Assembly: GCA_016788665.1 (NCBI GenBank) | Contig: JAEUSF010000001.1 | Coordinates: forward strand, 48,222-112,221 | Source: Candidatus Doudnabacteria bacterium | GTDB lineage: Bacteria; Patescibacteriota; Doudnabacteria; UBA920 | Direction of reading: 5' to 3' | DNA: 64,000 nt | Shown: in pieces, positions 5,709 to 48,469 of the stretch | How the letters are laid out: every line of letters begins with the position of its first letter | Position numbering within the stretch: the stretch's first letter is position 1 | Made by a program: the position numbers and the translations under genes | The notes under the pieces: model-generated | Seen by the model: only the letters and a program-made list of their open reading frames with translations | Databases searched by the model: none | What the model was told of the DNA's origin: nothing

Positions 5709-5807
5709 AAATCAAAGTTTAAATATGAAAATGTAAAATTACAGTCGTCACCCGAACGGCGGCTCTATGCTTTTAACTGTGATCTTACATTTTTAATTTT
5801 AGTAAGC

Positions 5808-6556: not shown

Positions 6557-7225
6557 TTAAGATTTGAAACTAATGATAACAGTAATCTCCCCTTTTATGC
6601 TTGGTTTTTCTTGAAGTTGGTGGATTACATCTAGCGGGTTGCCGCGAATGAATTCTTCGTGGAGTTTGGTAAGTTCTCTTGCTACAACTACGTTAGCTGT
6701 GGGAAATGCATTTGCTATGTAAGAAAGGGTTTTTAAAATTCTTTCCGGAGATTCATAAAAAATTGCTGTGGCTTCTGCTGCTTCCGCGGCTTGTAAGGCA
6801 GAAACGGTTTTTGCAGCTGTCTTTTGCAAAAATCCGAGAAACATAAAACGGTCGGTGGGCAGGCCCGAGGCAGAAAGCGCTGCTATGGCAGCATTGGCGC
6901 CAGGGATTGGAATTACTTGTACGTTTTGGTTAACGCATTCTCTAACCAGTCTAAACCCCGGGTCGCTTATGCCAGGAGTTCCGGCATCGGTAATAAATGC
7001 ACCGTTTTGTTTGGAGAGTCTTCGGGCTAGTTCTTTAACTACTTGCTGCTCGTTATGTTCTGCGAATTGGAATATTTCTTTATTTCTGATATCTAAATGT
7101 TGAAGCAACCTATTTGAATAACCAGGATTTTCTGCAACTATAAAATCGCACGCTTTTAAGGTTTCTATCGCGCGTAAGGTTATATCCCCCAGGTTCCCTA
7201 TTGGTGTTGCAACAACGTAAAGCAT
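6557..7225 (-). CDS. rsmI: 16S rRNA (cytidine1402-2'-O)-methyltransferase
   Basis: MLYVVATPIGNLGDITLRAIETL...DFIVAE, tetrapyrrole-methylase fold typical of RsmI. Confidence 0.85.
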   Translation of the reverse strand: MLYVVATPIGNLGDITLRAIETLKACDFIVAENPGYSNRLLQHLDIRNKEIFQFAEHNEQQVVKELARRLSKQNGAFITDAGTPGISDPGFRLVRECVNQNVQVIPIPGANAAIAALSASGLPTDRFMFLGFLQKTAAKTVSALQAAEAAEATAIFYESPERILKTLSYIANAFPTANVVVARELTKLHEEFIRGNPLDVIHQLQEKPSIKGEITVIISFKS

Positions 7226-7268
7226 TTGATTTAAAAGAATTAAAGGATTTAAATGACTGACAAGATTA

Positions 7269-7571
7269 TTAGAAATTATTTGAATGCTTGCTAATAGATG
7301 TTGACCTTGATGCTGTCATGACAGCTGTTAGTTCGTCAGCTTCTTTTAATAAAGATTCAACTGTTACCTCGTTTAAAATATTGGAAGCAACCATAAGTTC
7401 TAACCAGCCTAATGTTTCGTCTGGCTCTTTTACCACAGTCCCCATTTTCAAAATAAAATCTTTTGGTAATTTACTCCTACAAGCAGCTCTGTAGTTACTG
7501 TATATGTCAGTACCCGATCTTAAAATTTGATCCCCTATTTTTCTAACCACTAACCCATGATTTTTCTCCAA
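7269..7571 (-). CDS. four-helix-bundle protein (23S rRNA intervening-sequence protein family, TIGR02436/PF05635-like)
   Basis: SNYRAA..S...DFI.K....E..ET..WLEL pattern shared with the second copy at 46749-47093; flanked by inverted repeats (see findings). Confidence 0.55.
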   Translation of the reverse strand: MEKNHGLVVRKIGDQILRSGTDIYSNYRAACRSKLPKDFILKMGTVVKEPDETLGWLELMVASNILNEVTVESLLKEADELTAVMTASRSTSISKHSNNF

Positions 7572-7690
7572 ATATTGTACAAGTTTAACAATCCTTACCG
7601 CAAACTTTTTGGTTCTTTCTTTTAATTCGTCGCGTGTTATAGGGTGTAATCATTTAAATCTTTTAAATGATGTCGACCTTTTAAATCATA

Positions 7691-8548: not shown

Positions 8549-10012
8549 CTATATCCAATCAAAATTAATTGCTGCTAGATCGTCAAAAGTTATGGTTTTG
8601 CTTAGTTTCTCTGAAGCGGGTATATATTTTTGAGAAAAATAGTCGTAAAGGTCAGCGGTGGCTACCGAAAGAAGTTTGTTAAATTCCATTTTAAAAACTT
8701 GGTCTAAATATTCTTTAGTCATACCATTTTGAGCTATTATATCTGCAGCGTATAAAGCCCTAATTTGTTCGTTTATGCGTCCAAAAAAGATTGCTATGCC
8801 AGCTATAAACCCTGTCGTGTCGACTTCATTTATAAGGTCGTGCTCGGTGGAATATTCGGTGTTTTCTAAACTTTTTAACCACGCTTGTCTAAAGTGTTCT
8901 AAGTAGACCGTTGAGCCATAGCCCGTAAGAGGTTTTACTCCGGCATAAAAGTTTAAAACAGAAAAAATGGTAAAAAGACTAGGGTAAATTTCTTTTTTTT
9001 CCAGCAATTCAATCACAATGTCTGGTTTAAGTTCTATGCTTAAATGTTTAAAGCGTTCGTCCTCCGGCACAAGCTTATTGCCTTGGATGTACATCCTTAA
9101 AGAGCGGGGTTCGTTTGGATATTTTCGCCAAAAGAAATGTGTGCCTTTTTTTTCTTTTTCGTTCCAAGCGACCACTATGCCTCGAAAGTTATTTATTACC
9201 TTATTTCTGAGATTTTCTTCAAACAAAGAGGCGGAAACAAAATTGTCCTCTCTTAATATTTGCTTTAAGCATTCTGCTATAAGCTCCTCTTGAGTAATAT
9301 ATATAAGTTCAGGTAGACGCTTTCTTACAGAGCCTTCAAAAATTAAAGGCCAAGTATTTTTTACAATTAAGCTAACTTGATCGTTATAATTTGTACAACT
9401 TTCAAAATTTATATTATTTACTAAACTTTGGTATTTATCTAAAAAGTTTTTTTCCGACTCGTTAAATACGTTCCATCGTTTTATATTCTTTAAGCGGTCT
9501 ACAAAATTAAAGTCCCTTTTTGGTATAAAGTAAGAACAGTACTCTCTTTCGTTAGCGCTAAATAAAGGAACAGTTTTTCCATGAAATTGAAAACCACTTT
9601 TGCTGAAATAATTGTTAGGCGGTACATCGCCACTGGAAATTACTATGGTGGCAGATTGCCTGCGGCTTCCCTGTATTTTTGAAACGCTACTTATTACGTT
9701 TGAGGAAACTAAAATTGGGTGGTTAAGTATTTGGTGGTGATCTGCAATATTAAAAGATAAATTTTCTTCCAATTCAACTCTTAACTGGTTAATGGCGTCA
9801 GGTCCAAATAATGCAGTGATTTTATTTAGCAAAATTTTTTTTATTAAGCCTTGTCTAGTTTTGTGTATATTAGAAACTTTGAAATTATACAACTTATCAG
9901 AGTAAATATTGACCGGGTCTTTGACATCTAAAAAGCGTGCAAAAAGCGGCACATAATGTTTTATCTGTTCTATAATTTTTTCTTTTTCCAAAATAATTTT
10001 GTCGGTATCCAT
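8549..10012 (-). CDS. hypothetical protein (487 aa), no recognised domain
   Basis: Long uninterrupted ORF in the AT-rich context; no P-loop or other diagnostic motif seen. Confidence 0.5.
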   Translation of the reverse strand: MDTDKIILEKEKIIEQIKHYVPLFARFLDVKDPVNIYSDKLYNFKVSNIHKTRQGLIKKILLNKITALFGPDAINQLRVELEENLSFNIADHHQILNHPILVSSNVISSVSKIQGSRRQSATIVISSGDVPPNNYFSKSGFQFHGKTVPLFSANEREYCSYFIPKRDFNFVDRLKNIKRWNVFNESEKNFLDKYQSLVNNINFESCTNYNDQVSLIVKNTWPLIFEGSVRKRLPELIYITQEELIAECLKQILREDNFVSASLFEENLRNKVINNFRGIVVAWNEKEKKGTHFFWRKYPNEPRSLRMYIQGNKLVPEDERFKHLSIELKPDIVIELLEKKEIYPSLFTIFSVLNFYAGVKPLTGYGSTVYLEHFRQAWLKSLENTEYSTEHDLINEVDTTGFIAGIAIFFGRINEQIRALYAADIIAQNGMTKEYLDQVFKMEFNKLLSVATADLYDYFSQKYIPASEKLSKTITFDDLAAINFDWI

Positions 10013-13613: not shown

Positions 13614-13698
13614 TTAAATGCAGAATGAAGAATCGAGAATGCAGAAGCACAAGGAATGATTTTTTTACTTCTGCATTTTGCATTCTAAATTTTTTAAT

Positions 13699-21671: not shown

Positions 21672-23948
21672 TTAAAATTTTTCTTTTAAAGAATAAAACA
21701 TGTCATCAATTTGTTTGTACTCGGAAGAATCAGTACTCGACGAAGTTCTATAGTCTTCTGGGTCTATATCCACATATTTTTCATTTTCTAGCTCATGTAC
21801 CTTATGCTCTAGCTGTTTTTCAATTTCTTTAATATCAACTTCTAACTCCTCGCTTATTTCTCTAAAATCAGTTTTTAAATCCTCGTAGGAGCCTTCAGAA
21901 ACGTAATCAATTTCGTTTTCTAGTATATCATTTATTGAACTTTTTATTTCATCAGACAATTTAATTTTTTTATATTCCTCGGGAAAAATTTCCGCAAATT
22001 TAATAAAATATTTTACATCCTCAATTGACTCCATCGTTTTAGAAAAGAAATCGACAATGCCAGTTTTATCAAATTTGGTGAAAGGAGCAATTATTTCTAG
22101 TATATCAATATAAAAATTTTTATCTTCCCCTTTAATTTTATTATATTCAATATGTCCAAATATTTTAAAAACAAAATTCTGCCATTCCAAATCTTCGTTT
22201 AAACTCAAATTATTGATTGCTAATTTGAGTTTATATAAAATACTCGTCGACCTCCTAGCCCAATAATAAATAGCGTCAGCGCTAAAAGAATGTACAGTTC
22301 TTATCAAATGAGAGATTTTAAAATCAGAAAGTCCATTTTTTATATTTTCTTTAATTGTTTTAACTTGTTTTTTGCTTAGGATTATTTTTTCATTGCTCTC
22401 TTCATTAACCGAAAAAACTGTAAAAAATTGATTCAAAAAAATAACGTTCGTGATTAGGTCGTCAACTAAATCGGAATCTCTTTTTAGGTAATTTAGCAAA
22501 AAATCTTTGATTGAAGGATTTTGGAAGTCAATATATATTTGACCTCTTCCATCTCTTTTTGAAGATATGAATGTATTTTCAAGCTCCTTAATAGAGTCTT
22601 TTAATGAAAAGGAGTTAAAAGTAAAATTGTATTTTTTTGAATATTTTTGGGCAAATTTTATAAATGCTTCCTTTAAATCTTCAAATAACGCTGGGCCTCC
22701 CATAGAAAGCAAAACCATTAGTAAGCATTTGGAAAAATTAGTAATTTGCTTTTCATAACTGTGTTTCCATATCAATTCAGGGTTGTCTAGGTAATTAATA
22801 AATTTGTCAAAAAATTTTAAAGGCTTTATATTTTCCCAAATGCTAGGATTTGTAATAGTTTCAATTATCCTAGGATTATAATTGGGATGGTTAATAATAC
22901 CCATATAGTTTTTGTCCTCAAGGATGTTTTCTATATAGGGCTTGCTTATGTTTGAAAAATATAGATGATTGTATAAAATTCTTGACTTAACAAGTTTATT
23001 ATATTTTGATAAATCCAAAATACATTTTGCCAATTGAAGATTTTTATTATCTAGGCGTTCATAATTTACCAGGGCTTGATTTAAAATATATTCTCTTGTA
23101 GTCAGAATTAAGATTTTATTTTTAGATTTATTAACCAAGTCAATAAATTTAATTATTCTTTCATCCTCGTTGTTAGATATTTTATTTTCTAAAAAATTAG
23201 TTCCCAAAAAATCATCAAAAAGAAAAATTTGTTTTCTTTCAGGATTTAGAGCCTTGTATCCCTCCCCAATGTTATCAGATAAGTACACAAAATCTTCAAA
23301 GTCATTAGCCAAAAAATGATATACCAGTATTCTAGCCAATGTCGTTTTGCCTATACCTGGTATTCCCGATATTATTACGTACTTTTTTTTACTTAAGATT
23401 TCGAGAGCTTCGTTATAACTATCGTTCTCAACATACACTTTAATATTCTCTTTAATTGATTCTTCCTCGAAACTCGATTGATTGTATACTTTACTTTGTA
23501 CCAACTTTTCAAGAATAGAAGTACTAGATAACCATAACTTGAAATGTCTTTTTTCTACATCGGGGAATTTTCCGAGTAAATTATTTAAATCGCTTCTGCT
23601 GAAGATGTCATTAGGAGAAATGATTATAGGCTTACATAAATCAAAAATAGTTTGTTTTTGTTTTCGTGATAAAGGTGAGGATGTTGTTAGTATATATCTT
23701 TTTGGTTTAAGTTTAATCGCTTTTCCGGCCTCTTTTTTTATATTTGAAATTAAGGAATTATAATTTTCGTATCTTTTACACTGCACAATAATTGTTTCCT
23801 CTTTGTCTTGATAGCAACGTAAATCAATTCCACCATCTCGACCAGCAATAAAACTTTCCAGACGAATATTAAGGAATTTTTGAAGCAAGTCCCTAGACAG
23901 AACCTCAAATTCAATCGACGATAAATTTAAAAAATTATAAATATCCAT
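21672..23948 (-). CDS. Avs-like antiviral STAND protein: N-terminal Mrr-like PD-(D/E)xK nuclease + STAND (NB-ARC-type) NTPase + helical C-terminal domain
   Basis: Residues about 10-70: FEVLSRDLL...GRDGGIDLR...IIVQCKRY (Mrr_cat-like, D...QxK). Walker A VIISGIPGIGKTTLARIL, Walker B KQIFLFDDFLG, then ILILTTREYIL (NB-ARC/STAND TTR motif). About 430 aa helical C-terminus. 3-nt gap to the upstream OLD gene. Confidence 0.8.
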   Translation of the reverse strand: MDIYNFLNLSSIEFEVLSRDLLQKFLNIRLESFIAGRDGGIDLRCYQDKEETIIVQCKRYENYNSLISNIKKEAGKAIKLKPKRYILTTSSPLSRKQKQTIFDLCKPIIISPNDIFSRSDLNNLLGKFPDVEKRHFKLWLSSTSILEKLVQSKVYNQSSFEEESIKENIKVYVENDSYNEALEILSKKKYVIISGIPGIGKTTLARILVYHFLANDFEDFVYLSDNIGEGYKALNPERKQIFLFDDFLGTNFLENKISNNEDERIIKFIDLVNKSKNKILILTTREYILNQALVNYERLDNKNLQLAKCILDLSKYNKLVKSRILYNHLYFSNISKPYIENILEDKNYMGIINHPNYNPRIIETITNPSIWENIKPLKFFDKFINYLDNPELIWKHSYEKQITNFSKCLLMVLLSMGGPALFEDLKEAFIKFAQKYSKKYNFTFNSFSLKDSIKELENTFISSKRDGRGQIYIDFQNPSIKDFLLNYLKRDSDLVDDLITNVIFLNQFFTVFSVNEESNEKIILSKKQVKTIKENIKNGLSDFKISHLIRTVHSFSADAIYYWARRSTSILYKLKLAINNLSLNEDLEWQNFVFKIFGHIEYNKIKGEDKNFYIDILEIIAPFTKFDKTGIVDFFSKTMESIEDVKYFIKFAEIFPEEYKKIKLSDEIKSSINDILENEIDYVSEGSYEDLKTDFREISEELEVDIKEIEKQLEHKVHELENEKYVDIDPEDYRTSSSTDSSEYKQIDDMFYSLKEKF

Positions 23949-23951
23949 AAA

Positions 23952-25913
23952 TTAAAGAGACTGGAATAAAGTAGTTATAACGCTAGGTATGTTTTGTTTG
24001 TCTTTAATTACAGATTTTATTAATTTGCCACTTTTTTCTCCCTTACTTGGCAGGCAGGCTTTTTTCTCTTTATTACTATCAAGATAAACTTTGTCACTTA
24101 GTAGCTTGTAAAACTTATGTTCTCTATCATTCTTTAAATCTTTTCTAATTTCTCTAAAAACACTCTCGTCATAATTAAGACCGCAACACTCTTTTAAAAC
24201 TTCAATCCAAACGCTGTCGTCTATGGAATCTTCTAAGTCATAAGTCCCAATCAAAGTAATATTTTTAGCGGATAAAGCTGAATCAGAGTCAAGCAGGTAA
24301 TAAACATGTTCTTCGCTTTTTTGAAAGTTTTTTAAAAGCTCTTCAAACATAGTTTTATTTTTTTTACATTCATCTTTCCCCCCTAGATTAATAAGTTGAA
24401 TTGAATCCTGCATTAGTGTTCTTCCAAAATACAACTCATAAAAATAAGGTATTAAAATTTCTTCGGTGGGTCCTTCTACACACAAAAATTTATCGTAAAA
24501 TAAGAAGTCGCTACTTTTAACTTTTAATGAGTTTAGGACATCTTCAACATTAGAGCATTCTAAAATTTCAGAATAACCATCTTTCAAAGTAAAACGTTTT
24601 ATATTTTTAATGTTCAGTCTGTCAACAAAAATTGTCGAATGAGTGCTAACAAAAACTTGATAATAACTTTGAGATAATTTTTTTAAAATATTATATAAAT
24701 CTCTTTGAGCAGCAGGGTATAGATGAATTTCTGGTTCATCAAAACACCATAGAAATTTTTTTCTAATATCTTCAGTCGTTATTTTTTGTAAACTTGCCCA
24801 TTTAATAAATGCAAACCAAATCTGTTTTTTTACTCCCTCTCCTTGTGACTCCAGTCTTATATCACCATCACTACTAGTTTTATTTATCATAATATCTGAA
24901 ACATTTTCCTCAATATTAAAACTAACTGCTGCTTTTATGGCAGTAATATTTGGGAGTTCTTCAAAAAGATTGCCGGCTTTCCCTGCAAGTTCTTGATTTA
25001 CTTCTTGTGTAACGGTTTCACTGAGTTCCTTTGCACTTGTTTGCAGCGTATTTTTATATCCTTCTATTTTTGAAGCCATTGAATCAGCCGCAAGTTTTTC
25101 GACATCTTTTAGAGTTACGTTCCAGTCAATATAACGACAAACTGGGAAAAACCCCTTATCTTTTTTTACAAAATCTTTGTGCTCAGCCCAGCTTAGCTCC
25201 ACATCACTTTTACTATAAATTGCCCTAATCAATTCAATGTTTTTAAATCTCCCTTTTTTATTTTCGTTTACAACTTCATCATTTGAAATATCCAATTCAC
25301 CCTTTTTATCTTTTAAAAAAGTTTGATTTTGACTCCAAAGCTGTAATGGATTCGATTTTGTTTCTTTAAGGCAAACAAAATATTTACCCGAGGAATTTTC
25401 CTTTGTAAATTGCTTGAGTATATATAGTTTATTTTCGGTTAAACTTTCTATGCTCCACTTAAGTATGTTAGTCGAGCTTTCGACAAAATCTTCACTAATA
25501 TCTTTTTCTTCAATTTTAAACTCCCCGATTATTGTCGTTGTGTTTTCAGTAAAATTAAAGATGGGTAAATTTAACTTTTCAAAGATTGAGTTATAATCTA
25601 ACTCGCTTATGCCCGTGTTTGAAATATCTGAAGTTAATTGGCCTTCTTTCGCAATATGAAAAGTACTATCCGTTTCTAATAGTAAACAAATGGCTTTTAA
25701 AAAAACAGATTTTCCAGCATCATTTATGCCAATGAAAACATTTGGAATATCCGGCTGTAAATCGACTATGACGTTTTTACAACTTTTGTAATTTATAATA
25801 GCCAAACGTTCTAAAATCATATTGATATTTTTTATTAAAGGCACCGCTGAATCAATTATAGGCTTAATTTTGCGAACAAACAAGTATAAATTTGTACAAT
25901 TTTTTAAGAACAT
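23952..25913 (-). CDS. OLD-family (overcoming lysogenization defect) nuclease: ABC/AAA_15-type ATPase + Toprim
   Basis: Walker A FIGINDAGKSVFLKAI; long coiled insertion; Walker B/D-loop LWCFDEPEIHLYPAAQ; Toprim glutamate FLCVEGPTEEILIP and DxD YLLDSDS. A probable true start is the internal ATG at 25818-25820 (MILERLAIINYK...). Confidence 0.85.
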   Translation of the reverse strand: MFLKNCTNLYLFVRKIKPIIDSAVPLIKNINMILERLAIINYKSCKNVIVDLQPDIPNVFIGINDAGKSVFLKAICLLLETDSTFHIAKEGQLTSDISNTGISELDYNSIFEKLNLPIFNFTENTTTIIGEFKIEEKDISEDFVESSTNILKWSIESLTENKLYILKQFTKENSSGKYFVCLKETKSNPLQLWSQNQTFLKDKKGELDISNDEVVNENKKGRFKNIELIRAIYSKSDVELSWAEHKDFVKKDKGFFPVCRYIDWNVTLKDVEKLAADSMASKIEGYKNTLQTSAKELSETVTQEVNQELAGKAGNLFEELPNITAIKAAVSFNIEENVSDIMINKTSSDGDIRLESQGEGVKKQIWFAFIKWASLQKITTEDIRKKFLWCFDEPEIHLYPAAQRDLYNILKKLSQSYYQVFVSTHSTIFVDRLNIKNIKRFTLKDGYSEILECSNVEDVLNSLKVKSSDFLFYDKFLCVEGPTEEILIPYFYELYFGRTLMQDSIQLINLGGKDECKKNKTMFEELLKNFQKSEEHVYYLLDSDSALSAKNITLIGTYDLEDSIDDSVWIEVLKECCGLNYDESVFREIRKDLKNDREHKFYKLLSDKVYLDSNKEKKACLPSKGEKSGKLIKSVIKDKQNIPSVITTLFQSL

Positions 25914-27898: not shown

Positions 27899-28471
27899 AT
27901 GTATATACCAGTTATATTAGGTTCTGTTAGAGAAGGCAGAAGAAGTATTGACCCTGCTAAGTTAATGGTAGAGAGGATTAAGGCAATGGGGCACGAGTCA
28001 GTCTTGGTTGATTTCAAAGAAATGCCACTGCCTTTTTTTGACTCGGCTGTGGTTCCAGTGGCAATGAAGGGTGTGTATCCAAACGAAAATGCTCAAAAGT
28101 GGAGCGGTATAGCTCTTAAGGCAGACGCGTTTGTTTTAGTTGTTTCTGAATATAACCACGGATATAGTGCGGTTTTAAAAAACGCATTAGATTGGCTGTA
28201 TATGGAGTTTTCTAAAAAGCCTTTTGGCATGGTAGGCGTTTCGGACGGTAAGTTTGGAGCCATGAGGGCAATGGAACAACTCAGGTCGGTTATAGAGAAT
28301 TTTGGAGCGTTTGCTATAAGGGAAGTTGTACCCTTTGGGCCGGTTCAAGACGCATTCGACCAAAGCGGAAAACTTATAGACGAGTCCTATAACAAAAAAA
28401 TTGAAGGCTTGTTAACCAATTTGGTTGAGTTTGCAGGAGCAATGAAGCCAATAAGACCGAACTTAAATTAA
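27899..28471 (+). CDS. NAD(P)H-dependent FMN reductase family oxidoreductase
   Basis: MYIPVILGSVREGRRS... flavodoxin-like fold typical of SsuE/ArsH-type reductases. Confidence 0.75.
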   Translation: MYIPVILGSVREGRRSIDPAKLMVERIKAMGHESVLVDFKEMPLPFFDSAVVPVAMKGVYPNENAQKWSGIALKADAFVLVVSEYNHGYSAVLKNALDWLYMEFSKKPFGMVGVSDGKFGAMRAMEQLRSVIENFGAFAIREVVPFGPVQDAFDQSGKLIDESYNKKIEGLLTNLVEFAGAMKPIRPNLN

Positions 28472-28545
28472 AAATGCAAAATTCAGAATGCAAAATGGTA
28501 GGTGCTCTGTTATACATTTTGCATTTTTAATTTGTAATTTTGCAT

Positions 28546-29550
28546 TTAAATAACTTTCCACTTCCCCACTTCGTCTTTTACAAGTTTTCCTGCTACAGAA
28601 AAACCCGCAGCCAGCTTGTGTCCACCCCCTCCAAATATTCTTGCTACTTCTGAAACATCTATCCCCTTTTGTAGTTCGCTTCTCAGGCTTCCTTTTATTA
28701 CTCCGCCATCTTGTTTTAAAAACATGGCGAATTTGGCCTCAGGAACTGCGTTCAAGGTTTCTACAAAGCCTTCAAAGGCGTTTTGAGGAAGGCTAGAGTC
28801 AAGTTTTTTTATATCATCCTCTGCCATAATCGAATAGATGATTTTAGTTTTTTCATCGTAATAGGTATTTTTTAAAGCATTCCCCCAGGCTGCAAAGCTC
28901 TTTGGGGTTTTGTTTTTGTACGTATTTTTTATTATTAGACTTAGGTTGGCTCCGCGGCTTAAGAGTTCTCCCGCTGCTTTGAGCGTTGAGCTTTGCGTAT
29001 TACTGTGCCTGAAAGATCCTGTGTCGGTTATAATGCCGGTTAAAAGACAAGTGGAAATATCTTTGGTAATTTCCCAGTCGCAAAATTTAAAAAAATCATA
29101 AACCAATTCGGCAACGGAAGATTTTTTAGCGTCAACCATGTTTATATGACCGAAGAGTTTGTTGTCGTGGTGGTGATCTATGTTTATAAAGGGCAGGTTT
29201 AGTTCTAAAATATTTAGACTTCCGCAGCGTTTTTTTTCTCCGCAGCCGCATGCAATAACTAAGTCGAAATTCTCATGCTCAATATCGTCCTTGATTGTAT
29301 GACTGCCTGGCATAAATTGCAAAGACTCCGGGACGCCTTTTTTTATAGCGCATTCCACCCGCTTTCCCATTTTTTCCAGTTGCAGCTTAAGTGCCAGGAC
29401 GCTTCCCCCGTCGTCCCCGTCCATGTGCTCGTGCATGGTAAGTAAAACGGAGCTAGTGGCTTCCATTGCTTGTTTCGCTTTGTTAAATTGTTCAAGTATG
29501 TTTAAAGACATAGTAAAAATTTCAAATACCAAATTTAACATTTCAAACAA
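28546..29550 (-). CDS. nrnA: DHH/DHHA1 phosphoesterase, NrnA-like nanoRNase/pAp phosphatase
   Basis: DHH motif (INIDHHHDN), DHHA1 GGGH (FGGGGHKLAAGF). The N-terminal 13 aa of the ORF-track call are encoded by an intergenic repeat; an alternative start is ATG 29509-29511 (MSLNILEQ...). Confidence 0.8.
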   Translation of the reverse strand: MFEMLNLVFEIFTMSLNILEQFNKAKQAMEATSSVLLTMHEHMDGDDGGSVLALKLQLEKMGKRVECAIKKGVPESLQFMPGSHTIKDDIEHENFDLVIACGCGEKKRCGSLNILELNLPFINIDHHHDNKLFGHINMVDAKKSSVAELVYDFFKFCDWEITKDISTCLLTGIITDTGSFRHSNTQSSTLKAAGELLSRGANLSLIIKNTYKNKTPKSFAAWGNALKNTYYDEKTKIIYSIMAEDDIKKLDSSLPQNAFEGFVETLNAVPEAKFAMFLKQDGGVIKGSLRSELQKGIDVSEVARIFGGGGHKLAAGFSVAGKLVKDEVGKWKVI

Positions 29551-29611
29551 AATGCAAATGCCAAAGTATAATTCAAATACTAGGAATTAATTTGAGATTT
29601 GTAATTTGAAA

Positions 29612-29968
29612 TTACTTTTCTTCCTCGTGAATTTTTCGAATAAGCTTGTCCACGTGTTCTACATATCTGGGGCTGGTGTCGAGGTGAAAGCTTATGCGTG
29701 GAAATATTTTGGTGTTCATGGAGCCGTTTAGGCGGCCTTGAATTTCAAATATATTATTTTCCAAAATTTTTAAAATGTGGGCGTCGTCCCCGCCAAGTAT
29801 GGAGACCCATATTTTTGCCCATTTCATGTCTTTGCTAGTTTCAACTTTGGAAATAGTAAGAAGCCCATTTTCGCCTTGGAGGGTTTCGTGCAGGACTGGG
29901 CCAAGTACGTGTTCTATGAGCGAGTTAACTTTAGCTATACGGTTTGCTGGCTTTTGTAATTTTTTCAT
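29612..29968 (-). CDS. rbfA: ribosome-binding factor A
   Basis: 118 aa, KH-like RbfA sequence immediately downstream of infB (conserved infB-rbfA order). Confidence 0.85.
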   Translation of the reverse strand: MKKLQKPANRIAKVNSLIEHVLGPVLHETLQGENGLLTISKVETSKDMKWAKIWVSILGGDDAHILKILENNIFEIQGRLNGSMNTKIFPRISFHLDTSPRYVEHVDKLIRKIHEEEK

Positions 29969-35875: not shown

Positions 35876-35964
35876 AAATAAATTTCAAATATCAAATGCC
35901 AAATTTCAAATAAATACTTGGCATGATTTTGAATTTGAAATTTGTAATTTGTAATTTTATATTA

Positions 35965-39152: not shown

Positions 39153-39728
39153 ATGGACTCTTTTTTAACAACACATTTGGCAGAATGGGGCAATTTTCCT
39201 TATTTGTTAGTTTTTTTCGGAATGCTTATAGAAGGTAATTTAACTTTATTTGCCTCAGGTGTTTTGCTGTCTCAGGGGGTGTTTGACCCGTTGCCTATTC
39301 TTCTTACTACTTTTGCCGGAGCTTTTGCGGAAGACTTCTTATGGTATAGGTTAGGTTTTAGGGTAAAGCAACATACTCATAGAACCGCTGAGTGGGCTGC
39401 AAAAATTACAAATTCGTTTTCAGGGCATTTAAAAAAGAAAAATTTTCGCACCCTGCTTATTTCCAACTTTGTTTATGGTATTCATAGGGCTGTACTTTTT
39501 AGAGCTGGTATGGAAAAATTTCAGTCAAAAAAGTTTTTTAGAAATGTAGCTGTAAGTTTGTTAATTTGGATAGCATTAGTAGGCGGACTTGGTTACTCAG
39601 CCGGAGCTTCGGTGGGACTTTTGCAAGAATATTTTAAGTTTGCTCAAATTTTACTTTTGGTTTTGGTTATTTTATTTCTGCTATTTGAGAGATATGTTGT
39701 CTCAGGGAGACTTAGAAAACGGTTATAA
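39153..39728 (+). CDS. dedA: DedA/VTT family membrane protein
   Basis: LLVFFGMLIEGNLTLFASGVL...FAGAFAEDFLWYRLG matches the DedA signature. Confidence 0.8.
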   Translation: MDSFLTTHLAEWGNFPYLLVFFGMLIEGNLTLFASGVLLSQGVFDPLPILLTTFAGAFAEDFLWYRLGFRVKQHTHRTAEWAAKITNSFSGHLKKKNFRTLLISNFVYGIHRAVLFRAGMEKFQSKKFFRNVAVSLLIWIALVGGLGYSAGASVGLLQEYFKFAQILLLVLVILFLLFERYVVSGRLRKRL

Positions 39729-39730
39729 AA

Positions 39731-39771
39731 AATTGAGACCTTTGCTACTAGCAAAGGTCTCAATTTTTTTT
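39731..39771 (+). terminator. rho-independent terminator after dedA
   Basis: gagacctttgcta cta gcaaaggtctc + T-tract. Confidence 0.75.
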
Positions 39772-44083: not shown

Positions 44084-45547
44084 TTGTGTTCTTGCCTGCC
44101 AAATTCTAAGGTGAAAAATATGAAAATTTTTAACGTAATAAAATACCAGCTTTATTTGCTTCAGCTGGAAAATTATGAACTGGTTCGTTATTTTGTTTTG
44201 CTTTTTAAAAAAGGCATATTACCGCCGGTTGGATTACGAAAAAGCCTTGTTTGGACTAAGAAAGCCCTATTGCTTTTTAGTTTGGCTGTTGCTACCCATT
44301 TGGTATTGCCAGCTGTTGTTTTCTTTTATTTTACTTCAGGGCTTTCGGTGGTAAGTGTTAGGTATTATGCATTGTGCGCCTTACTGCTTACTGCCTACTA
44401 TTTATTACAGTTTCTATACTTTATACTTTATACTTTATACTCTGTTTTATTCTGGCCGCTGGATTTCATAGTGAAGCAAATAATTATCAAAAAAGCTAAG
44501 TTCAAAGTAAAATATCTTGGTTCCCGAATAAAAATAATAGGTATTGCTGGTAGTTATGGTAAAACTACCATGAAGCATGCGCTTACTAAAGTACTGGGTG
44601 AAAAGTTTAAAGTGCTCAGTACCCCGGAAAGTGTAAATACTTCAATCGGTGTAGCAAGGTGGATACTAAAAGAAGTAGATGAGTCAGCTCAAATTTTAAT
44701 AATTGAAATGGGGGAGCATTACCGAGGTGACATTGAGGCGCTTTGTAAAATAGCCAGGCCAGATATTTCTGTTATAACCGGCATTAACGAAGCACATTTG
44801 GAGCGTATGGGCAGTTTGGACGAAATTGCGTCGACGGTTTTTGAGGCGGTGAGTTATTCAAAACCGGGAGCCGTAATTGTACTAAATGGTGACGACAAGA
44901 ATGTTATGGGTCTTTACAAGGAATTTGTTTGGAAAGACCATAGAGTGGAGAAGTTTCAAATTTCAAATTTCAAATTTCAAAAATTTAACGCCGAAGAGCT
45001 TTTTTGGACGGGTAACCATCCTGAAGCAGGGGAAATAAAAATACATTTATTAGGCGAGTACGCTTTGGGGTATGCAGATGCGGCAATTCAGGTTGCTAAA
45101 AGCTTTGTTATTTCTTGGGAAGAAGTAAGAAGGGGTATAGAAAAAATAAAGCCAGTAGAACATAGGTTGCAACCAATTAGGTCGGCGGGTGATTTGTTGA
45201 TAATTGACGATGCTTACAATGGTAATCCAGAGGGCGCAAGTGAGGCTATTAGGGTTTTGTCACGCATTGAAAATCGAAGGAAAGTTTATATTACTCCTGG
45301 ACTTGTAGAGATGGGCAAGGCGACGAAAGAAGTGCATATTGAAATAGGTGAGCAGTTAGTTGGTGTAGCAGATATAGTAGTGCTAATTAAAAACAGCGTA
45401 ACACCGAGTATAGAATTAGGAATTAAGAATAGAACAGAAATTATTTGGTTTAACACAGCTCAGGAAGCACACTCAAAACTGAGTACTATTTTAAAGCCGG
45501 GAGATGTGGTGGTATTCCAAAATGACTGGGGAGATAACTATGTTTGA
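44084..45547 (+). CDS. murF: UDP-N-acetylmuramoyl-tripeptide--D-alanyl-D-alanine ligase (MurF) with hydrophobic N-terminal extension
   Basis: Mur ligase motifs GIAGSYGKTT, PDISVITGINEAHLERMGSLDEI, DAYNGNP, PGLVEMG. The N-terminal about 120 aa is predicted TM, unlike the canonical MurF N-domain. Contains heptamer tandem repeats. Confidence 0.8.
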   Translation: MCSCLPNSKVKNMKIFNVIKYQLYLLQLENYELVRYFVLLFKKGILPPVGLRKSLVWTKKALLLFSLAVATHLVLPAVVFFYFTSGLSVVSVRYYALCALLLTAYYLLQFLYFILYTLYSVLFWPLDFIVKQIIIKKAKFKVKYLGSRIKIIGIAGSYGKTTMKHALTKVLGEKFKVLSTPESVNTSIGVARWILKEVDESAQILIIEMGEHYRGDIEALCKIARPDISVITGINEAHLERMGSLDEIASTVFEAVSYSKPGAVIVLNGDDKNVMGLYKEFVWKDHRVEKFQISNFKFQKFNAEELFWTGNHPEAGEIKIHLLGEYALGYADAAIQVAKSFVISWEEVRRGIEKIKPVEHRLQPIRSAGDLLIIDDAYNGNPEGASEAIRVLSRIENRRKVYITPGLVEMGKATKEVHIEIGEQLVGVADIVVLIKNSVTPSIELGIKNRTEIIWFNTAQEAHSKLSTILKPGDVVVFQNDWGDNYV

Positions 45548-46709
45548 AATATCAAATATCAAATATCAAATATCAAAGTTAAGGCATGTCTTTACAAGGC
45601 CTAGAGTAAGCTACGAGCCGCTTATTGAAGTGAGGATTTCTAAAGAGGCGATTTTGCATAATCTAAAAACTTATAGAGAAGCTTATCCAAAGTTTGGATT
45701 CGTGCCAGTTTTAAAAAGCAATGCCTATGGGCATGGGTTAGTAGAGGTTGCGAGTATTTTAGACAAAGAGAATGCGCCGTTTTTTATGGTGGATTCTTTT
45801 TATGAAGCTTTGGTTTTAAGAAGAGCAGGAATTAAAACCAAAATTTTGGTGTTAGGCTACGCTACGCTTGAGCAAATAAATAAAAATAATTTAAAAGATG
45901 TAAGCTTTGCGATTATAGACTTAGAGCAGTTAAAAAATATTTCAGCTAACTTAATAAGGAAAACTTTTTTTCATTTAAAAATTGACACGGGAATGCACAG
46001 GCAAGGCATGTTACCTGGGCAAGTAATGGAGGCGGTAAAAATTATTCGAAGCAACAGTAATTTTATTTTGGAAGGTGTGTGTAGTCATTTTGCTGATGCG
46101 GATGGAAAAGACCAGTCTTTTTCAAAAGGACAAATAAAACTTTGGAATGAAGTTTCGAGAGATTTGCAAAATCTATTTAGTTCTATTAAATTTTTGCATT
46201 TGTCCAATACGGGTGGGGCGTTTTATTTACCCGAAATAAATGCGAACGTGGGACGTTTGGGTATTGGCCTGTATGGATTCAATACTTCCCATTTTAGCAA
46301 TTTGAACTTAAAGCCAGCTTTAGAAATGGTTTCGATTGTAACTTCCATAAAAACTATTTCCGCTGGAGAAAAAGTAGGCTACAATAATTTATATACCGCT
46401 ACGCGGCCGACTAAAATTGCAACAGTGCCAGTTGGTTATAACGAAGGTTTGGATCGCAGATTATCCGATAAGGGCTTTGTAAAAATTAATAACTCCTTTT
46501 GCCCTATTGTGGGACGTATAAGTATGAATATGTGCAGCATAGATGTTACAGAAATAAAAAATATAAAGTTAGAGGATGAAGTCGTTGTAATAAGTAGAAA
46601 TTCACAAGATAAAAATTCAGTAGAAAGTATATCGGAGCTTACGGGTCAGATACCTCATGAAATTTTGGTTGATGTGCCAGGGTATTTAAAAAGAGTTGTT
46701 AGTGGTTAA
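45540..46709 (+). CDS. alr: alanine racemase
   Basis: PLP-lysine motif VLKSNAYGHG; start ATG 45540 overlaps the murF stop (ATGTTTGA). The ORF track gives an alternative start at 45504. Confidence 0.85.
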   Translation: MFEISNIKYQISKLRHVFTRPRVSYEPLIEVRISKEAILHNLKTYREAYPKFGFVPVLKSNAYGHGLVEVASILDKENAPFFMVDSFYEALVLRRAGIKTKILVLGYATLEQINKNNLKDVSFAIIDLEQLKNISANLIRKTFFHLKIDTGMHRQGMLPGQVMEAVKIIRSNSNFILEGVCSHFADADGKDQSFSKGQIKLWNEVSRDLQNLFSSIKFLHLSNTGGAFYLPEINANVGRLGIGLYGFNTSHFSNLNLKPALEMVSIVTSIKTISAGEKVGYNNLYTATRPTKIATVPVGYNEGLDRRLSDKGFVKINNSFCPIVGRISMNMCSIDVTEIKNIKLEDEVVVISRNSQDKNSVESISELTGQIPHEILVDVPGYLKRVVSG

Positions 46710-46748
46710 ATTTGTAATTTTATAGTTTTTAATTTTTAAATAAACCCT

Positions 46749-47093
46749 ATGAACTATGATCTCGAGGAGCGTACAGCAAAGTTCGGTGAGAATATTTTAA
46801 ATTTTTTAAAAACTATTCAGGCAGATCATATAACCAAGCCTTTAATAAACCAGCTTGTTCGCTCGGCAACAAGCATAGGTGCTAATTATATGGAGGCGAA
46901 TCAAGCAAGTTCAAAAAAAGATTTTTACAATAAAATAAGAATTTCTCAAAAAGAGTCTAATGAAACCAAGCATTGGATAAGAATGTTATCAACTGTTATG
47001 GGAGAAGAAAAAGAGCAATTAAGAAATTTTTGGAAAGAAGCGCATGAATTAACATTAATTTTTGCAAAAATATCGAAAAGTAATCAAAAGTAA
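46749..47093 (+). CDS. four-helix-bundle protein (23S rRNA intervening-sequence protein family, TIGR02436)
   Basis: SIGANYMEANQASSKKDFYNKIRISQKESNETKHWIRM is the canonical signature; inserted between alr and ddl. Confidence 0.75.
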   Translation: MNYDLEERTAKFGENILNFLKTIQADHITKPLINQLVRSATSIGANYMEANQASSKKDFYNKIRISQKESNETKHWIRMLSTVMGEEKEQLRNFWKEAHELTLIFAKISKSNQK

Positions 47094-47131
47094 ATTATTT
47101 AAAAATTATAAAATTACAAATTAAAAATTAT

Positions 47132-48310
47132 ATGCACATTGGAGTTTTTTTTGGCAGCGGAAGTGTTGAACACGACATTTCTATAATTACCGCTAACTTA
47201 GTTATAAATGGGCTTAAGAGCTTAAACCATTCTGTGACTCCTGTTTATATTACCAAGCAAGGTAAGTGGATGCTGGGCGAAGAGCTTGGTGACTTAAAGC
47301 TTTTTTCTGACCCAGCCAAAAAAGTAGAAGATCAAAAAAAATATTCAGAATATTATTTAGATATGCAGGAGTCGGTGGGAAAGATGGTGTTTAAGAAAAA
47401 AGGTTTAATGGGTAAGTCAGTAGCCATAGATTTAGCTTTTCCAGCCATGCACGGGACTCTTGGTGAGGACGGGACTTTGCAAGGATTGTTTGAAATGTTC
47501 CGTCTGCCTTATGTGGGCTGCGGGGTCGCAGCGTCGGCGGTGGCAATGGATAAGGCTCTGACTAAAATTGTTATGCAGTATGCAGGTGTTAGAACAACTA
47601 AATTTAAAGTGTTGTTCAAAAATGATTGGGAGAAGGACAGCGAGTTAGAGAAAAGTAAAGTAAGAGAACTGGTTTTTCCGGTTTTTGTTAAGCCTGTACA
47701 TTTGGGTTCTTCTATAGGCATTGGTAAAGCGAAAGATGAAAAAGAATTGGAGCAAAAAATAGAAGTAGCTTTCTTTTACGATCATAAAATTGTGGTGGAA
47801 GAAGCAGTGGAAAATTTAATGGATGTTACCTGCTGTGTAATAGGAAACAATGAAACCGATACACAGGCTTCAAATTTGCAGGAGTCGGTTTATACCCAGG
47901 ACATGTTTAATTTTGAAGATAAGTATATAACCGACGGGGGTAGCCAAACAGGCAAGGCTCAAAATAAGATGGTTATTCCTGCAAGATTAAACAGCGAGCT
48001 TACTAAAAAAATTCAAGATACTGCGAAAGTGGTTTATAAAGCTGTTGAGTGTACAGGTATTGCCAGGGTAGATTTTTTAGTAAATACTAAAACTAATGAA
48101 TTTTTTGCCAATGAAATTAATCCAATGCCTGGAACGTTGTATCATCATTTGTGGAAAGCCAGCAGCGTCGAGCTTCCAGATTTGTTAACAAATCTTATTA
48201 ATTTTTCGCAGGAGCAATACAAGGAAAAGCAGAGCGTAAATTTTACATTTGAGTCGAGTGTTTTAAAAGGATTGGGCGGGAGTAAGGGTAAGCTTGGAAA
48301 GCTTGGTTAA
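47132..48310 (+). CDS. ddl: D-alanine--D-alanine ligase
   Basis: ATP-grasp architecture, N-terminal HIGVFFGSGSVEHDISIITA, C-terminal catalytic motifs. Confidence 0.9.
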   Translation: MHIGVFFGSGSVEHDISIITANLVINGLKSLNHSVTPVYITKQGKWMLGEELGDLKLFSDPAKKVEDQKKYSEYYLDMQESVGKMVFKKKGLMGKSVAIDLAFPAMHGTLGEDGTLQGLFEMFRLPYVGCGVAASAVAMDKALTKIVMQYAGVRTTKFKVLFKNDWEKDSELEKSKVRELVFPVFVKPVHLGSSIGIGKAKDEKELEQKIEVAFFYDHKIVVEEAVENLMDVTCCVIGNNETDTQASNLQESVYTQDMFNFEDKYITDGGSQTGKAQNKMVIPARLNSELTKKIQDTAKVVYKAVECTGIARVDFLVNTKTNEFFANEINPMPGTLYHHLWKASSVELPDLLTNLINFSQEQYKEKQSVNFTFESSVLKGLGGSKGKLGKLG

Positions 48311-48411
48311 ATTTATGTTTCATCGGAATTCTGCCTTTGGGTGGTGGAACACAAGCAAAATGCTGTTGGTTTAATAAAAAACATTCAACAAATTTTATTT
48401 TTTTTACAAAT

Positions 48412-48442
48412 ACAGTCCTCTATATATAATATAGAGGACTGT
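48412..48442 (+). terminator. perfect 31-bp palindrome (terminator/promoter element) between ddl and rnhB
   Basis: acagtcctctatatataatatagaggactgt; contains TATAAT. Confidence 0.5.
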
Positions 48443-48469
48443 ATTTAAATAGAGTATTATAAATTTGCA

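Follow-up and report, generated by a model that had tools for sequence, protein, structure and literature searches.

A small gene of the four-helix-bundle (4HB) family, situated between alr and ddl in the murF-alr-ddl operon of a Candidatus Doudnabacteria genome, is enclosed by two long inverted arms that recur with the gene in its relatives. It lies in the 64,000-nucleotide (nt) stretch of contig JAEUSF010000001.1 (positions 48,222 to 112,221) that was analysed here and is termed the window; coordinates are those of the window unless a locus number (L) precedes them. Rather than the simple 13-bp terminal inverted repeats (TIRs) of the original prediction, each arm is a tandem array of 7-nt units whose sequence is conserved family-wide, and the arms were shown to be a conserved feature of the gene, with about 75 relatives at about 100 different operon junctions. 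By analogy with the intervening sequences (IVSs) of 23S rRNA, the 414-bp unit may be interpreted as an IVS-type foldback cassette in an mRNA operon, that is, a promoter-less 4HB gene between paired arms that would be processed by RNase III; we hold this interpretation with about even confidence.

The cassette at the alr-ddl junction

The genes around the cassette are murF, alr, ddl and the gene for RNase HII. The junction comprises the following features:

45504..46709, plus strand: alr, alanine racemase, the upstream host gene
46709..46743, plus strand: left (5') arm, the array AATTTGT AATTTTAT AGTTTTT AATTTTT plus AAATAA
46725..46731, plus strand: extra unit GTTTTTA, present in the left arm only, which would bulge in the 28/28 register
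46749..47093, plus strand: 4HB gene (23S_rRNA_IVP / TIGR02436), 114 residues
47095..47122, minus strand: right (3') arm, TTATTTAAAAATTATAAAATTACAAATT, a perfect reverse complement of the left arm once the 7-nt unit is left out
47123-47129: further unit extending the right arm in the ungapped register
47132..48310, plus strand: ddl, D-Ala-D-Ala ligase, the downstream host gene

The 13-bp inverted pair predicted earlier holds for its left member, AATTTGTAATTTT at 46709-46721, but the exact reverse complement, AAAATTACAAATT, lies at 47110-47122 and not at 47109-47121, and the repeat is longer than was claimed. Positions 46709-46724 and 47107-47122 form a perfect 16-nt inverted repeat, and the arms pair at 28 of 28 positions (46709-46743 versus 47095-47122) once the left-only unit is omitted; in the ungapped register they extend over 35 nt with 83% matching. 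The first base of the cassette is the final base of the alr stop codon, and its 3' end is 9 nt from the ddl ATG; the alr-ddl intercistronic spacer is wholly taken up by the cassette, in sense orientation. The 4HB gene has no Shine-Dalgarno sequence, its ATG lying 5 nt 3' of the left arm. A promoter in the left arm (TTGTAA ... TATAGT) was ruled out on inspection, since the spacing is wrong.

Conservation of the arms in Patescibacteria

A scan of one genome per species (185,579 species genomes) yielded 119 relatives with the patterns used, and the best 80 loci, drawn from many Patescibacteria lineages, were examined. In nearly all of them the left side of the gene reads (AATTTT + 1-2-nt linker)n and ends in AAATAA, and the right side carries the reverse complement, TTATTT (linker + AAAATT)n. 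Of 78 loci, 65 have a left arm and 62 a right arm of the strict pattern, with at least three units. The flanks were also scored by aligning the 80 nt upstream of a gene with the 80 nt downstream of it, taken as reverse complement (flank inverted-repeat score); the score is at least 30 in 91% of 75 loci, compared with 13% of neighbouring genes. The earlier proposal that the gene sits inside an inverted-repeat element is borne out by these similar arms at many junctions and by the existence of miniature elements without an open reading frame (ORF), described below.

The arms remain AT-rich even where the host flanks have 46-56% GC, and the repeat unit is constant across hosts of 28-56% GC. The similarity of arms between loci equals that within a locus. 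A T-to-G change specific to the left arm of the window is matched by the complementary base in its right arm, unlike in L001.

Two loci show additional structure immediately 5' of the 4HB ORF, in the form of two arms without an ORF or of an inverted array close by (L014:2459-2575 and L119:2417-2490); with such an upstream partner the left array could pair either nearby or beyond the ORF, giving alternative structures. In two others (L058:560-950 and L071:4380-4770) a tRNA-like sequence interrupted by an insert lies 3' of the cassette, and in L071 this sequence is duplicated along with the right arm.

Chance resemblance and predicted folding

The exact 13-mer occurs five times in the window, and sites with up to two mismatches number 42, against 19.2 +/- 4.2 expected. 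The arm motif had been assigned to a TTTGTAA heptamer family, which is indeed enriched in the window (49 copies versus 33 +/- 6 expected). As the 13-mer is recurrent, an inverted pair of 13-mers alone is only modestly improbable, with a chance of about 0.04 by our estimate for a pair within about 450 nt. This recurrence, together with the AT-rich genome, is what can be said for viewing the arms as a chance resemblance within low-complexity AT-rich intergenic DNA. Against it, the flank score of the cassette gene is 45, about 11 standard deviations over the other 51 window genes (mean 15.2, standard deviation 2.6, maximum 23), and the arms recur at about 70 independent loci, including hosts with 46-56% GC flanks. 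A chance origin is refuted by these data, and we assign it practically no weight.

In the minimum-free-energy structure predicted for 46690-47140 the two arms are base-paired, with the ORF between them (z = -2.95). The predicted arm duplex of the window cassette is -33.0 kcal/mol, and predicted duplexes across the family average -26.3 kcal/mol, compared with -12.8 +/- 3.9 for shuffled flanks.

The 4HB protein

Thousands of proteins belong to the "23S rRNA IVS protein" family, structures have been solved, and most of its members are not in rRNA; we know of no function for it, and it has been an orphan since the 1990s. The original assignment of the 114-residue product to this family is well founded: it matches PF05635 (8.7e-16, 58.5 bits; cut-off 33.8) and TIGR02436 (2e-20, 73 bits; cut-off 24), and its predicted fold resembles that of PDB 2RLD. 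The AlphaFold2 model has a mean confidence score (pLDDT) of 94.8, with helices at residues 3-20, 29-51, 56-84 and 88-113, and in Foldseek its template modelling (TM) score is 0.80-0.85 against 2RLD and close to 0.8 against 2GSC; the subfamily profile matches 2RLD at E 1.5e-17. An exact-protein look-up of the window 4HB protein returned no record; in the NCBI annotation of a Candidatus Doudnabacteria metagenome-assembled genome there is an identical protein. The subfamily is tight, with 65-90% identity and 38 invariant columns, a pattern that indicates strong purifying selection.

A relation to Avd, the accessory protein of diversity-generating retroelements (DGRs), had also been put forward. 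The likeness in fold stands, but it is remote, since the Foldseek match to bAvd has a TM score of 0.67-0.71, at 13% identity, versus 0.80-0.85 to 2RLD.

A second cassette in the window

Another cassette, on the minus strand and overlooked in the original prediction, fits flush between two further genes:

7227-7688, minus strand: second cassette, between a 90-residue ORF and a TP_methylase gene (6557-7225)
7647..7688, minus strand: 5' arm, of GATTTAAAW / GATTGACAW-like 9-nt units, 2 nt past the stop of the 90-residue ORF
7269..7640, minus strand: second 4HB gene, 123 residues, 31% identical to the first
7227..7268, minus strand: 3' arm, starting right after the stop codon and ending 1 nt before the TP_methylase gene

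The two inverted arms are 42 nt each. The product (P0121) matches PF05635 (1.2e-9, 38.8 bits) and its NCBI annotation reads four helix bundle protein, from Candidatus Doudnabacteria; the gene has no ATG, GTG or TTG start, and the ATA at 7640 is its likely start. Relatives of this cassette carry inverted arrays of its 9-nt units, in the same or different contexts. Elsewhere in the window and in L105-L117, no 9-nt unit arrays were found beyond the cassettes; one stray pair of units occurs in L084.

ORF-less hairpins

About 15 hairpins of 110-125 nt with cassette-type arms and no ORF were found in the loci of relatives. They have AAATAA/TTATTT boundaries, an inner stem and only a small loop, and each takes up nearly the entire spacer between co-directional genes, leaving only a few bases free. 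In L026 this is the case for three spacers in succession, and other examples occur in L011, L045, L017 and L019. In the ddl loci L081-L104 no heptamer arrays of the strict pattern were found; these are different lineages, and the arm variant of the window itself also fails the pattern, so that these loci are an imperfect control. Two hairpins of the AATTTGW variant lie in the window:

28463..28549, spacer of convergent genes: ORF-less heptamer hairpin, 18-nt perfect, with an exact copy of the 13-mer
35881..35963, spacer between two minus-strand genes: ORF-less hairpin sharing a 16-nt identity (TATAAAATTACAAATT) with the right arm of the cassette

The arms of both are in the opposite order to those of the cassette, with the A-rich half first. 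Related AT-rich heptamer hairpins, again with the A-rich half first, were observed in the spacers at 29518-29613, 5720-5801 and 13624-13691, and exact copies of the 13-mer occur in two of the five window spacer hairpins, which may be terminator-like or processing hairpins. The cassette architecture also has a bearing on how genomes of the candidate phyla radiation (CPR) are annotated, in which such hairpins fill many intercistronic spacers.

Placement in operons, age and mobility

The neighbours of the cassettes belong to 105 upstream and 86 downstream Pfam families, mainly housekeeping (e.g., POR, T2SS F, adenylate kinase, DnaB, PheS, RuvB and LigA). Both neighbours are on the cassette strand in 57 of 65 loci, where 53% would be expected (p = 2.6e-9). 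The median distance from the upstream stop codon to the outer end of the left arm is 4 nt, and that from the outer end of the right arm to the downstream start is 7 nt. The co-orientation and the flush arm ends indicate that the element occupies whole intercistronic spacers in the sense orientation.

The alr-ddl junction was compared among metagenome loci whose Ddl is 64-79% identical to that of the window, together with L001 and L008:

L084, L085, L087: murF-alr-ddl contiguous, spacer of 73-168 nt, no 4HB gene
L081, L088-L091: murF immediately before ddl
L083/L082, L102, L096: other genes inserted ahead of ddl (GNAT, membrane protein, methyltransferase)
L001 (Ddl 79%): 4HB cassette at the same place as in the window
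L008 (Ddl 73%): cassette at the same place, right arm lost

The operon is thus uninterrupted in L084, L085 and L087, in agreement with the earlier statement that the cassette interrupts murF-alr-ddl, and relative to these relatives the cassette is an insertion. Since L001 and L008 share it at the same site, it is old and has been vertically inherited within the subclade. The gene had been pictured as the cargo of a mobile miniature element. The inverted-repeat element of this picture is real, but recent or transposase-driven mobility is not supported, as there is one copy of the subfamily in the window and it is shared with L001 and L008. Each subfamily is represented by a single copy in the window and in any one locus, no transposase was found in or beside any cassette (among the neighbour genes), and no relatives occur on viral contigs in IMG/VR. 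Recent horizontal transfer, as judged by composition, was rejected: the GC content at third codon positions (GC3) of the cassette correlates with that of the host over the loci compared (host GC, r = 0.75). Such inserts are tolerated in essential operons, murF-alr-ddl being an example.

The cassette-free alr-ddl spacers (L085:2930-2985, L087:2455-2520 and L084:2850-2960) contain GC-rich nested hairpins or long palindromes, and some structured element is present at this junction in every relative examined. In L081 the murF-ddl spacer (L081:2955-2995) is made up of AATGACAAA-like units of about 9 nt, arrayed on one side only and without an inverted partner, and these units resemble those of the second window cassette.

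Homologues beyond Patescibacteria

The cassette layout, with 7-9-nt units of its own in each case, was also shown in homologues from Chlorobi, Chloroflexi and Bacteroides:

Prosthecochloris (L110): sbcD-4HB-sbcC, unit GATTTTTGA
Chloroflexi (L111): argC-4HB-argB, unit GATTTCT
L117, first gene: adjoins a glycosyltransferase gene, unit AATTGACAA
L117, second gene (148 residues): about 1.2 kb from the first, on the opposite strand, unit GATAGAAA
Bacteroides-type contigs (L118-L121): araD-4HB-araA, (AATTGAC)4, arms matching at 30 of 31 positions, flush to both genes
Another Bacteroidaceae 4HB gene (L122-L125): aminotransferase-4HB-DAHP synthase, AATTGAC heptamer

The 4HB protein of the Bacteroides-type contigs L118-L121 is 98% identical to 2RLD (BT_0352). 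In one published study, araMPRDAB is treated as one AraR-controlled operon, and the 4HB gene between araD and araA is not discussed (PMC4666351). The AATTGAC, GATTGACAW and AATTGACAA units (L118-L125, L109, L117 and window 7647-7688) contain TTGACA, the sigma-70 -35 hexamer, and these hexamers recur every 7-9 nt, pointing inward from both arms.

Proposed mode of action and alternative explanations

If the unit is a foldback cassette of the IVS type, it would be transcribed passively within the murF-alr-ddl message. The arms would then pair into an A-U stem of about 28 bp enclosing the ORF in its loop, like the terminal stem of a 23S rRNA IVS, and RNase III would cut this stem, thereby releasing the 4HB mRNA and parting the alr and ddl messages. 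Such a separation would allow the insertion to be tolerated inside an essential operon. More speculatively, the oligomeric 4HB protein may bind its own repeat units, which would link the protein both with the element that encodes it and with the copies lacking an ORF. The unit is subfamily-specific and constant across hosts of widely different GC content, which suggests that the repeats may be recognised by their sequence, the simplest candidate for this being the oligomeric 4HB protein.

Several results weigh against this foldback interpretation. An all-A-U stem with arms about 350 nt apart and translated flanks may form poorly in vivo. Scanning of the window and of 20 related loci revealed no rRNA, and the IVS analogy is therefore one of architecture only. 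Mismatches between arms show no bias for G:U over A:C (56 versus 45, p = 0.32), such that sense RNA is not singled out over DNA as the selected form. Within the subfamily, the arms show little locus-specific covariation (difference 2.4, p = 0.03), the own partner arm ranking a median of 30th of 76; this is not predicted by a pure pairing constraint and points to sequence-specific recognition.

Alternatively, the arms could be the TIRs of a DNA transposon, with multiple sites for a transposase or recombinase that is encoded elsewhere or assisted by the 4HB protein; the cassette would then be the autonomous-like form of a single mobile DNA element and the ORF-less hairpins its form resembling miniature inverted-repeat transposable elements (MITEs), and RNA pairing would be incidental. 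Such an origin would account for arrays conserved in sequence beyond mere complementarity, for ORF-less derivatives that share the cassette ends, for the roughly 100 different genomic contexts and for the varying presence of the element at alr-ddl. In addition, the identity of the 4HB proteins across CPR classes (65-90%) is far higher than the identity of the enzymes on either side (Ddl, 35-37% in distant loci), and L001 is 61% identical to the window in Alr versus 90% in the 4HB protein. The case is nonetheless weakened by the absence of a transposase in or beside any cassette, the single copy of each subfamily per locus or window, the GC3 ameliorated to the host and the lack of relatives on viral contigs. 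No target-site duplication is recognisable in the AT-rich flanks, the empty-site relatives being divergent (Ddl 66-70%), and DNA transposition alone would not lead one to expect cassettes that lie strictly in the sense orientation and abut stop and start codons. A transposon is, in our view, an unlikely explanation.

Equally, the 4HB protein could be a host regulator or RNA chaperone that binds the repeats, with the arrays as its operators, the ORF-less hairpins as its regulon and its own gene between two arrays for autoregulation, acting for instance on intercistronic mRNA stability or processing. The subfamily-specific units, the strong purifying selection with 38 invariant columns, the long residence and the ORF-less copies with cassette units in the same loci are all in keeping with a regulator; the 3-5 units per arm would suit an oligomer such as 2RLD with its five chains, and S23p has been described as a homopentamer (PMC4990558), which fits repeated units. 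A regulator would hardly be expected, however, to be so patchily distributed (the 119 matches that the patterns used gave in 185,579 species genomes), to be absent from close relatives at the alr-ddl junction, or to accompany unrelated housekeeping operons of no common function. Moreover, the second window copy has no canonical start, and the Coxiella ORF is decaying and apparently untranslated (PMC4990558). We consider a regulatory module improbable, to much the same degree as the transposon. Far less probable still is an orphan DGR accessory gene (Avd) whose arms would be remnants of template and variable-region structures. PF05635 does resemble Avd (PMC10053308), and bAvd was recovered in the fold search (TM 0.67-0.71), but the protein is far closer to the S23p structures 2RLD and 2GSC, and the arms are tandem short repeats, not pairs of template and variable repeats. 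A reverse transcriptase, for which the original prediction had suggested a search, was found neither among the 20 largest ORFs of the window nor in the most frequent families of neighbours at about 72 loci, and for this locus a DGR origin is largely refuted.

The foldback interpretation can be extended to the family as a whole. PF05635 proteins would then be dedicated partners of pan-bacterial foldback elements, with or without an ORF between subfamily-specific 7-9-nt arrays, that settle in transcribed operon spacers, and of which the rRNA IVSs would be a special case; this generalization is offered only tentatively, and we think it more doubtful than the interpretation of the single cassette. 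If it is true, the oligomer would bind the arrays, as an RNA stem or as DNA, and promote the maintenance, processing or spread of the element; the orphan family would gain a function, and IVSs, free-standing 4HB genes and Avd a common origin. The 4HB gene family and the rRNA IVSs are already known. As regards the operon-spacer setting, the cognate tandem-repeat arms, the ORF-less miniatures and the cross-phylum recurrence, no description was found in the open-access literature searched; one may exist elsewhere, for example in database family comments. Free-standing 4HB members in at least four phyla share a single design, namely a sense insert in an operon spacer, cognate inverted arrays and ORF-less miniatures. 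This design ties them to the rRNA IVSs and renders a mechanism based on RNase III or repeat binding testable, in a tractable organism, at the BT_0352-like gene between araD and araA with its (AATTGAC)4 arrays.

Other features of the window

A run of three tandem AATTTCA heptamers lies within the murF coding sequence (44957-44986) and is probably coincidental, the stretch being F-K/Q-rich. Two perfect palindromes, one of 21 nt just past the ORF 39153-39728 (39727-39769) and one of 18 nt between ddl and rnhB (48408-48446), are likely terminators or processing sites. An island of low GC content at 21672-25913 (28-31% versus about 38%) codes for an nSTAND3 NTPase that carries a fused Mrr-like nuclease domain, as well as for an OLD-like AAA_15/TOPRIM ATPase, and looks like a defence island. 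The 487-residue ORF at 8549-10012 (minus strand) has no Pfam match at 1e-5.

Comparison with known systems

Like the 4HB cassette, integron cassettes consist of a promoter-less single ORF with an imperfect inverted repeat, co-oriented with host transcription. They differ in that attC is at the 3' end only and the cassettes are arrayed beside an integrase gene and attI, whereas the arms of the 4HB cassette are symmetric on both sides. By inspection no integron features were seen at the 4HB cassette, integrase and attC not having been specifically searched for. The eukaryotic foldback (FB) transposons have long TIRs built of short tandem subrepeats and occur with or without an internal ORF, and in both respects they resemble the cassettes and their ORF-less copies. 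They differ in being far larger elements of eukaryotes whose complete copies include a transposase, and there is no evidence of homology.

The Correia (or NEMIS) elements of Neisseria, as well as ERIC, RUP and BOX, are small intergenic inverted-repeat elements that are co-transcribed with the flanking genes, and Correia hairpins are substrates of RNase III. The 110-125-nt ORF-less hairpins of the cassette family resemble these and MITE hairpins. Unlike the cassettes, elements of the Correia type occur in high copy number, with unique-sequence TIRs and TA target duplications, and are not known to have an associated 4HB gene.

Avd (PDB 4DWL and 8UBE) shares with the cassette protein a small four-helix-bundle fold and an oligomeric ring, and it binds nucleic acid in the DGR ribonucleoprotein. 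The remote match described above sets the two apart, as do the lack of a reverse transcriptase, template repeat or variable repeat nearby and the different genomic setting.

On architectural grounds, the closest analogue of the cassette is the 23S rRNA IVS with an S23p ORF, as known from Coxiella burnetii and Leptospira (PMC4990558); the original prediction had named such IVSs only as the source of the family. The Coxiella IVS is 428 nt long, the inverted repeats at its ends fold into a 28-bp stem with one mismatch and one bulge, the S23p ORF lies in the loop in sense orientation, and RNase III cleaves it (PMC4990558). In CPR bacteria, a few rRNA inserts also carry a 23S_rRNA_IVP ORF (PMC11270868). 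The two systems differ in their setting, which is helix 9, 25 or 45 of 23S rRNA for the IVSs and an intercistronic mRNA spacer for the cassette; in the arms, which in the cassette are arrays of tandem 7-9-nt units; in the ORF, intact and highly conserved in the cassette and decaying in Coxiella; and in that excision by RNase III without religation is known for Coxiella and other IVSs and is only predicted for the cassette. They agree in size (428 versus 414 nt), in a terminal stem of about 28 bp with a bulge, in a protein of the S23p family encoded in the loop in sense orientation, and in being carried by the host transcript with no promoter of their own, and both have ORF-less versions and a patchy distribution.

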